A stretch of DNA of 64,000 bases from Escherichia coli (GCF_030013595.1 NZ_CP122768.1); one strand, 5' to 3'. Counted from the first letter of the stretch, positions 377 to 1,847 are shown. Numbers and translations are program-made. The notes: generated by a model not told the origin, from the letters alone.

Positions 377-395
377 TGCCGGATGCGGCGTGAAC
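377..395. repeat. Left half of a REP (palindromic unit) split by the IS insertion
   Basis: gccggatgcggcgtgaac at 378-395 joined to gccttatccggcc at 1832-1844 reconstructs the canonical REP GCCGGATGCGGCGTGAACGCCTTATCCGGCC. Confidence 0.7.
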
Positions 396-437
396 TGAAC
401 TGCACCCCAAATGTTGGACATAATCTGACATCTGAAG

Positions 438-968
438 GTGCAGTTTATGAAACATTCATTTGAAGTAAAACTTGCCGCTGTAAATCATTACCTGGCTGGT
501 CATGCAGGCATCATTTCTACGGCAAAACTCTTTCAACTTTCTCACACCAGCCTCTCACACTGGATTAATCTTTTTCTTCTTCACGGTCCTCGTGCACTGG
601 ATTGCAGACACAAGCGTAGCTATTCTCCTGAAGATAAACTTTGCGTGGTTCTTTATGCTCTCGGGCATTCTGAGTCTCTACCCCGGGTAGCTGCCCGGTT
701 TAACATTCCCAGCCACAACACGGTTAAAAACTGGATAAAAGGCTACCGCAAATCTGGTAATGAGGCCTTTATCAGGCGCAGGAAGGAGAAAAGCATGACC
801 CGTTCTGATGATACCCATGAAAACGAGGCAAACATGACGCCGGAAGAGATGAAGAATGAGCTGCGTTATCTTCGCGCAGAAAATGCATATCTGAAAGCCA
901 TGCAGGAGCATCTCCTGGAAAAAAAGCGCCAGGAGCTGGAGAAAAAACGAAAGTCATCCGGAGCCTGA
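438..968 (+). CDS. IS3-family transposase OrfA (helix-turn-helix plus leucine-zipper region)
   Basis: ORF track 176 aa; basic/coiled-coil C-terminus (ELRYLRAENAYLKAMQEHL); A AAA AAG frameshift motif at 920-926 near the 3' end. Confidence 0.8.
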   Translation: MQFMKHSFEVKLAAVNHYLAGHAGIISTAKLFQLSHTSLSHWINLFLLHGPRALDCRHKRSYSPEDKLCVVLYALGHSESLPRVAARFNIPSHNTVKNWIKGYRKSGNEAFIRRRKEKSMTRSDDTHENEANMTPEEMKNELRYLRAENAYLKAMQEHLLEKKRQELEKKRKSSGA

Positions 969-1795
969 GGTGCGGACACTGCCAGTCTGACCTGTTAAAG
1001 GCTGCAGGGCTGGCCAGAAGCACGCTGTACTACCAGCTGTCACTGCAGAAGGCTAAGGACAAGTATGCTGATGTGAAACAGCTCATAGCCTCCATCTTCC
1101 ATGAACACCGGGGATGTTATGGGTACCGGCGGATCCATTGTGAGCTTCAGAAAAGAGGTCTTAAGTTCAGTGGCAAAACGGTGCGAAAACTGATGCAACA
1201 GCTCGGCCTGAAGTCTCCTGTGCGCCTGAAGAAATACCGGTCTTACCGGGGAAATATGGGACTCGCTGCAGAAAATATCCTTCAGCGGCAGTTCAAAGCG
1301 GAAGCTCCCTGTGAGAAATGGGTGACAGATATCACCGAATTCAGGGCTGGCGGACAAAAACTGTACCTGTCCCCGATACTTGATTTGTTTAACGGGGAAA
1401 TCGTGGCGTGGGAAACTGCCTGCAGGCCTACAGAGGAGCTGGTGAAGCGGATGTTAAATAAGGGGCTGGAAAGCCTTGCTGAAGGGGAGAAACCGCTGCT
1501 CCACAGTGATCAAGGATGGCATTACCGGATAAAAAGTTATCAGTCCGCCCTGGCGGACAGAGGGTTAGTGCAGAGCATGTCGCGCAAGGGCAACTGCCTT
1601 GATAATGCGGTAATGGAGAACTTCTTTGGTCACCTGAAAGAAGAAATGTACTATCGCCGGGACTACAGAAATGTAGAAGAGCTGGAAAATGCCGTTAACG
1701 AATACATAACTTACTGGAATCAAAAAAGAATAAAACTCAGTCTTGGGGGACTCAGTCCGGTAGAATACCGGACTGAGCATCAAAAAGCCGGTTAA
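920..1795 (+). CDS. IS3-family transposase OrfB (DDE integrase domain), expected to be expressed as an OrfAB fusion by -1 frameshift at 920-926
   Basis: The -1 frame is open from about 890 through 1795; the ORF track lists 1073..1795 from a GTG. Translation has integrase-core motifs (WVTDITEF, LHSDQGWHY, GNCLDNAVMENFFGHLKEE). Confidence 0.75.
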   Translation, partial: KKAPGAGEKTKVIRSLRCGHCQSDLLKAAGLARSTLYYQLSLQKAKDKYADVKQLIASIFHEHRGCYGYRRIHCELQKRGLKFSGKTVRKLMQQLGLKSPVRLKKYRSYRGNMGLAAENILQRQFKAEAPCEKWVTDITEFRAGGQKLYLSPILDLFNGEIVAWETACRPTEELVKRMLNKGLESLAEGEKPLLHSDQGWHYRIKSYQSALADRGLVQSMSRKGNCLDNAVMENFFGHLKEEMYYRRDYRNVEELENAVNEYITYWNQKRIKLSLGGLSPVEYRTEHQKAG

Positions 1796-1827
1796 CTGAA
1801 ACTGTCCAGGTTTTGGGGTTCAGTTCA

Positions 1828-1847
1828 GAACGCCTTATCCGGCCACT
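1828..1847. repeat. Right half of the REP split by the IS
   Basis: gaacgccttatccggcc immediately follows the right IS end. Confidence 0.7.

Follow-up and report, generated by a model that had tools for sequence, protein, structure and literature searches.

IS1397 is an insertion sequence (IS) of the IS3 family known from natural isolates of Escherichia coli, and experiments by Clement et al. (1999) and Wilde et al. (2001, 2003), as cited in PMC1525189 and PMC3184786, showed that it inserts specifically into REP (repetitive extragenic palindromic) sequences, or palindromic units, found in bacterial interspersed mosaic elements (BIMEs), both in E. coli and in other enterobacteria. Recombination between homologous IS copies is also a documented cause of large E. 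coli rearrangements, for example in mutation-accumulation lines (PMC5009759) and during long-term experimental evolution (PMC4173774). Here, we analysed a stretch of 64,000 nucleotides of E. coli DNA (NZ_CP122768.1, hereafter the window), in which a 1432-bp IS1397 copy with TG...CA ends spans positions 396-1827. Based on the origin of its flanks, this copy probably marks one breakpoint of a rearrangement of about 98 kb, most likely an inversion that would have arisen through two IS1397 insertions followed by IS-IS recombination.

The preliminary description of this locus took the copy for a precise insertion into one REP palindrome. When the two flanks were joined (250 bp from the left and 250 bp from the right, with one GAAC kept) and compared with 5426 complete E. 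coli genomes, they were contiguous in none of them, and the two halves matched separately at yphA and at ypfN-dapE. With window positions 1-3200 as the query, the best coverage in any of these genomes was 88%, and an uninterrupted homologous locus to which the window could be compared does not exist among them. The two flanks map instead to two loci, with 81-98 kb between them in every genome examined. In K-12, the yphA/yphB REP (GATGCCGGATGCGGCGTGAACGCCTTATCCGGCATTTAAT) and the ypfN/ypfH BIME are separated by 80.8 kb and inverted to each other, and in HCP5S3_I2, the closest complete genome, both REPs are empty, 97.6 kb apart and mutually inverted. Over positions 1-395, the window matches the yphA region of HCP5S3_I2 throughout (100%, 0/395 mismatches), and from position 1828 onwards it runs collinearly with the ypfN side of that genome's empty REP (99.93%, with 1/1373 mismatches in the right flank), which places both flanks in the lineage of HCP5S3_I2.

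The REP halves themselves carry the marks of these two loci. The left half directly follows the yphA stop codon and has the variants specific to the yphA REP (GATGCCGGATGCGG) instead of a ypfN-type left half (CATGGCCGGATGTGG); to the left of the IS, the ypfN BIME's Z-type partner unit is missing, as is its GATGTGG variant. It is the same as the empty K-12 yphA/yphB REP up to the loop, and the same as the left junction of yphA::IS1397 in AF39, GCA_900448395.1 and GCA_030346565.1. The right half runs on into the ypfN stop codon, and the right junction is identical to that of ypfN::IS1397 in EcPF15. When folded, the rejoined flanks (GCCGGATGCGGCGTGAACGCCTTATCCGGCC) do give a hairpin of the REP type (-11.3 kcal/mol, z = -3.5), but the canonical REP that had been seen in them does not have a single origin: by the provenance of its parts, the rejoined palindrome is a chimera of two REPs, with one half from yphA/yphB and the other from ypfH/ypfN. 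The native REPs fold more stably (-13.6 and -15.2 kcal/mol), because their outer stem pairs no longer match in the hybrid. The GAAC direct repeat, read earlier as one target duplication, is indeed present on both sides; since the flanks derive from two REPs, it most likely combines one half each of two distinct duplications. Had IS1397 simply inserted once, into one REP at one locus, the matching GAAC repeats and the REP fold of the rejoined flanks would be accounted for, but this model is contradicted by the origins of the flanks and has, in our view, hardly any probability left.

The states that would have preceded the rearrangement are found in relatives. In GCA_030346565.1 and GCA_900448395.1, the order yphA|IS1397|yphB is intact, with GAAC duplications and an IS identical to that of the window (0 mismatches); in the former assembly, the ypfN REP is empty and the right flank differs from the window by 1/4944 mismatches. 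A yphA insertion with a GAAC duplication is also present in AF39, while EcPF15 carries a ypfN insertion with GAAC exactly at the position and in the orientation seen in the window, and HCP5S3_I2 holds one IS1397 copy identical to the window copy. In SK1402, both insertions occur together, 74 kb apart, on opposite strands and unrecombined, an arrangement that could serve as the substrate from which recombination would yield the window junction.

These parent states also bear on the order of events. REP-REP recombination within the shared core of about 22 bp might have come first, followed by a single IS1397 insertion into the resulting hybrid REP. The two REPs do share a perfect 22-bp core (GGCGTGAACGCCTTATCCGGC), REP-mediated rearrangements are on record (as cited in PMC1525189), and the GAAC match would be explained directly. 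However, the near-isogenic genomes already hold an identical IS1397 at yphA|yphB with GAAC, so the left junction predates the rearrangement, and the REPs offer 22 bp of homology compared to the 1432 bp offered by the IS. A length of 22 bp lies at or below the minimum for efficient RecA recombination. Hence, it is very unlikely that the REPs recombined before the element arrived.

The target choice of IS1397 would account for the agreement between the two GAAC repeats. Whether other copies sit in REP/BIME units with short duplications was examined in other genomes, with a positive outcome: all 15 other full-length copies, from 14 genomes and 8 loci (ysaA/avtA, yphA/yphB, ypfH/ypfN, ygcP/ygcQ, yihN/ompL, phnL/phnK, downstream of uvrD and yjjW/yjjV), interrupt a Y-type or Z-type REP at its central loop, in either orientation, and have duplications of 3 or 4 bp. 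In the window copy, both ends likewise adjoin a REP loop half. The yphA|IS1397 junction occurs in 58 genomes, the inspected ones of which all run on into yphB, with duplications of GAAC, GAA and GTGA, and the IS1397|ypfN junction occurs in 6 genomes, with duplications of GAAC, TAAC and GTTA. Because the duplications differ among the insertions at each site, at least three independent events can be counted for each, and by this count IS1397 has repeatedly targeted both the yphA/yphB and the ypfH/ypfN REP. The two loops have the sequence GTGAAC in the lineage of the window. Duplications of GAAC have been recorded at yphA (AF39, GCA_900448395.1 and GCA_030346565.1) and, separately, at ypfN (EcPF15). 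As IS1397 favours the same position in each loop, the matching GAAC repeats would be a coincidence.

The ypfN-side REP of this lineage (window positions 1832-1860) reads ..CCGGCCACTCAGC and is without the TACGGTTGAGC segment of K-12 (..CCGGCCTACGGTTGAGCACTCAGC); its loop is GTGAAC, compared to GTTAAC in K-12 and SK1402.

In the history that we favour, an IS1397 copy with a GAAC duplication would already have been resident in the lineage, at the yphA/yphB REP loop, when a second copy entered the equivalent GAAC of the ypfH/ypfN REP loop in inverted orientation. Homologous recombination between the inverted 1.4-kb copies would then have flipped the hcaD/yphA-to-ypfH segment and left each recombinant IS bordered by one half from each REP. 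The flanks of the window copy map to distinct loci whose target sites are inverted, and the two SK1402 insertions lie on opposite strands, both of which are consistent with an inversion. Window positions 1-370, within yphA, would be the sole part of the inverted segment inside the window. The reciprocal junction would be expected about 98 kb upstream of the window start, with the ypfH-side BIME half (..ATGGCCGGATGTGGCGTGAAC) on one side of IS1397 and the yphB-side half (GAACGCCTTATCCGGCATTTTATAAATT) on the other. A deletion between the two REPs was also considered and rejected, because essential genes lie in the interval (hisS, der, ispG and the isc operon, for example) and because the convergent orientation of yphA and ypfN fits an inversion.

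The same flank pattern would be predicted if the resident yphA::IS1397 had attacked the ypfN REP loop in a replicative intramolecular reaction, from which a second IS copy and the inversion would arise together with a split GAAC duplication. Such a transposase-mediated inversion takes one event instead of two, starts from a documented parent state (yphA::IS1397 with an empty ypfN REP) and would place the new junction exactly at the preferred REP-loop position. On the other hand, IS3-family elements are not known to use a pathway of this kind. IS911, IS2 and IS3 itself transpose by a copy-out/paste-in mechanism through a circular intermediate, the integration of which leads to simple insertions, not inversions, and to our knowledge a one-step inversion is undescribed for the copy-out/paste-in elements of this family. 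Moreover, SK1402 shows that the two-insertion intermediate occurs in nature. From the sequence alone, the one-step event and the two-step history would look alike even if both junctions were at hand. We regard a one-step origin of the window junction as unlikely, and the broader proposition, that the IS1397 transposase, guided by REP loops, catalyses one-step intramolecular inversions from REP to REP, as unlikely too.

A precedent for the favoured inversion by IS-IS recombination comes from a sister assembly, GCA_030347985.1 (JAUAMK010000002.1), in which an inversion of about 72 kb (hda ... yphA) is bounded by IS1397 copies at about 1.371 and 1.444 Mb, within a contig of 4.7 Mb. The yphA copy has GAAC on its left and GCA plus a yfgD-side REP half on its right, and the second copy, 72 kb away, lies between an hda-side REP half that ends in GCA and a GAAC joined to the yphB-side half. 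Only across the two copies do the duplications pair (GAAC with GAAC and GCA with GCA), which is the classical mark of inversion between a pair of inverted IS copies. One of these copies is 1431 bp long, owing to a 1-bp deletion. Within one E. coli lineage, the same yphA copy would have seeded at least two different large inversions, that of the window and that of GCA_030347985.1. There is a slight possibility that the region around the yphA REP is inverted recurrently and reversibly, with REP-targeted pairs of inverted IS1397 copies serving as the switches.

Several points weigh against the history that we favour. The reciprocal junction (ypfH ... IS1397 ... yphB) would fall outside the window, and for this reason we infer an inversion, as opposed to another kind of rearrangement, instead of seeing it. 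An intermediate of the same lineage, with both insertions present and unrecombined, was not found in the genome collections searched. The IS1397 copies of the lineage are all identical, which makes the crossover point unmappable, and the GAAC match is just what a single insertion leaves, such that reading it as a coincidence depends on the origins of the flanks. In addition, an inversion of 98 kb within one replichore is expected to carry some cost. Finally, the rearrangement was seen in 0/5426 complete genomes, which could mean that the event is very recent or that it is an assembly artefact.

The latter could take the form of a misjoin across the 1.4-kb repeat, or of a mixture of isomers, with IS1397 really present in both REPs in inverted orientation. 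The junction is unique in the comparison with the complete genomes, identical IS copies are classic misjoin sites, and inverted repeats can flip within a culture, giving a mixed population. Yet two IS10 copies of 1.3 kb, each bounded by a 9-bp duplication of its own, are cleanly assembled in the same 64-kb window, which suggests long-read or finished data, and an equivalent IS1397-bounded inversion, with both of its junctions, is contained in the independent 4.7-Mb contig. A second insertion at ypfN would be needed in this case as well. We give such an artefact or mixture a small chance, and an inversion between two inserted IS1397 copies remains the reading that we consider probable.

The element itself is essentially certain to be IS1397; the separate origins of its flanks concern the history of this copy and leave its identity untouched. 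Along all 1432 bp it shows 100% identity to chromosomal copies that RefSeq and PGAP, the Prokaryotic Genome Annotation Pipeline, call "IS3-like element IS1397 family transposase", a match that chance could not produce, and it is through this naming that equivalence to the type sequence is drawn; the length also agrees with what we take to be that of IS1397. The earlier assignment to the IS3 family as an IS1397-like element is borne out by this identity, and by a match of the conceptual OrfAB fusion (449 aa) to the NCBIfam model NF033516 (IS3 family transposase equivalog) at 387 bits, the cutoff being 160 bits. Overlapping open reading frames (ORFs), a -1 frameshift heptamer, a DD(35)E motif and imperfect repeats with 5'-TG...CA-3' ends, all predicted from the sequence, are what is expected of the family. 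The Pfam domains HTH_28, HTH_21, rve, rve_2 and rve_3 were detected in OrfAB, and the predicted catalytic triad of the fusion protein is D295/D355/E391, with its last two members 35 residues apart.

The proposed A AAA AAG frameshift site is present, and it is in the correct register for tandem slippage, with the orfA codons GAA-AAA-AAG running across positions 918-926. An AGGAG motif (903-907) lies 13-17 nt upstream of the heptamer, and PGAP gives identical copies a coding sequence joined from two pieces and marked "programmed frameshift". A hairpin just 3' of the heptamer (926-972) folds only weakly better than shuffled sequence (z = -1.87), and we make no claim for a stimulatory structure. 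A scan of window positions 300-2100 for promoters and terminators gave nothing above expectation. The 5' start of the element, TGAACTGC (T396), was fixed from copies with differing flanks, and its 3' end is GCAGTTCA-like. The terminal inverted repeats are imperfect, as stated in the preliminary description, but they measure 25 bp, with 21/25 positions paired (TGAAC...GTTCA); the 26th pair that had been proposed, C395/G1828, falls in the flanking GAAC, outside the IS. The window copy is intact and probably active. The coordinates of all features are given in Table 1.

Table 1. Positions of the IS1397 copy, its flanks and further features, in window coordinates unless another sequence is named
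Feature	Position	Strand	Remarks
yphA, 3' part (DoxX-family inner membrane protein)	1-370	+	ORF 53-370, stop codon 368-370
Left half of yphA/yphB Y-type REP, GCCGGATGCGGCGTGAAC	378-395		ends in GAAC 392-395
GAAC repeats	392-395 and 1828-1831		on both sides of the IS
IS1397, intact, 1432 bp	396-1827	+	full-length 100% identity to copies annotated as IS1397 family
Left inverted repeat (IRL), TGAACTGCACCCCAAATGTTGGACA	396-420	+	boundary set from 15 other copies
orfA, 173 aa; helix-turn-helix domains and leucine-zipper-like C-terminus	447-968	+	PGAP start at equivalent position
Slippery heptamer A_AAA_AAG	920-926	+	predicted -1 programmed frameshift site, giving OrfAB
orfB part of OrfAB, DDE catalytic core	926-1795	+	-1 frame open 860-1795
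Right inverted repeat (IRR), reverse complement TGAACTGAACCCCAAAACCTGGACA	1803-1827	-	
GAAC and right half of ypfH/ypfN BIME Y-type REP, GCCTTATCCGGCC	1828-1844		
ypfN, 66 aa	1852-2052	-	converges on the IS
dapE	2080-3207	-	followed by yffB, ypfM and acrD; collinear with relatives for at least 23 kb
IS10-type copy in eutJ, 9-bp duplication GGCGTAGTG	24911-26239		ISVsa5 family annotation in relatives; Rfam RNA-OUT match
IS10-type copy in eutB, 9-bp duplication CGCGCAGTG	31458-32785		ISVsa5 family annotation in relatives; Rfam RNA-OUT match
IS1397 right-end relic	BL21(DE3) NC_012892.2 3487902-3487966		same relic in K-12

Full-length IS1397 (at least 97% identity) is present in 1707/5426 complete E. 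coli genomes, at 1 to 40 or more places per genome, and is almost always chromosomal. Its supposed absence from K-12 holds for intact copies, but a right-end relic remains there and in BL21, made up of the last 65 bp of the element (IS positions 1368-1432) at 95% identity. This relic adjoins the REP right half TAAACGCCTTATCCGGCC and sits between yhhI, an ISEc1 transposase gene, and yhhJ; it looks like an old REP-loop insertion that was truncated later. The partial-match genomes that were sampled (20 rows from about 1780 complete genomes) carry just this 65-bp relic. A degraded IS1397 in a REP half (..GCCGGATGCGGCCTGAAC|) was found in E. coli SCPM-O-B-8794, with a 193-bp internal deletion and foreign DNA breaking in after IS position 1115.

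A scan of species representatives with the 25-nt IRL found true IS1397 in E. coli records only, and among these, one holds a degraded copy and another is on a likely contaminant contig. The exact 25-nt IRL also bounds distant IS3-family relatives in Yersinia aldovae, in an Acholeplasmataceae metagenome-assembled genome (MAG), in a Bacteroidetes MAG and in Serratia nevei. The transposases of the Yersinia aldovae and Acholeplasmataceae relatives are 37-64% identical to OrfAB. Identity is 85% over the first 78 nt in the Serratia nevei relative, and its ends adjoin GGGCGC-type palindrome halves just past stop codons, a hint that this relative targets REPs. It is unexpected for a terminal repeat to be so strictly conserved across phyla.

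The two IS10-type copies of the window lie in the eut operon, which they disrupt. They are inverted with respect to each other, the outside end of each pointing outward as in Tn10, and between them lie 5.2 kb (eutJ'-eutG-eutH-eutA-eutB'), a segment that is potentially a composite transposon with chromosomal cargo. The pair is missing from HCP5S3_I2; the same truncated EutB was found in the draft assemblies GCA_008326365.1, GCA_036246605.1 and GCA_021649405.1, in each case on short draft contigs.

The element, its REP-loop targeting and IS-mediated rearrangement are all already known, and for genome biology the case is routine. What is unusual is only that site specificity appears to have erased the usual breakpoint signature: because both parental duplications are GAAC, the recombinant copy would resemble a clean insertion into a canonical REP. 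The value of the case is practical, as a caution that a perfect "target-site duplication" and a seemingly restorable target can accompany a site-specific IS even at a rearrangement breakpoint. Matching direct repeats are no proof of a simple insertion when the element selects a repeated target.

Compared to the inversions between IS copies known from E. coli, the window copy is alike in that its flanks map to distant, inverted loci and that the parent insertions occur in relatives. The sister assembly GCA_030347985.1 displays the reciprocal junctions with cross-paired duplications, whereas the window contains one of the two junctions, and the mismatched duplications usually left by such events are absent from it, both being GAAC; the site specificity of IS1397 would have made the two duplications the same. 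REP targeting is shared by IS1397 with IS621, ISPpu9, ISPpu10, ISPsy8 and ISPa11, according to PMC1525189; IS621 and ISPpu9 belong to the IS110 family, with a different enzymology, and insert beside the REP loop rather than in it, as described in PMC3184786. ISKpn1, a Klebsiella relative that targets palindromic units (PMC1525189), has in common with IS1397 both the insertion into REPs and the IS3-family architecture. With respect to IS1397 itself, the window element is the same in sequence, length, orfA/orfB frameshift, DDE transposase and REP-loop position, and only the context of the window copy differs, in that its REP halves come from two different REPs.

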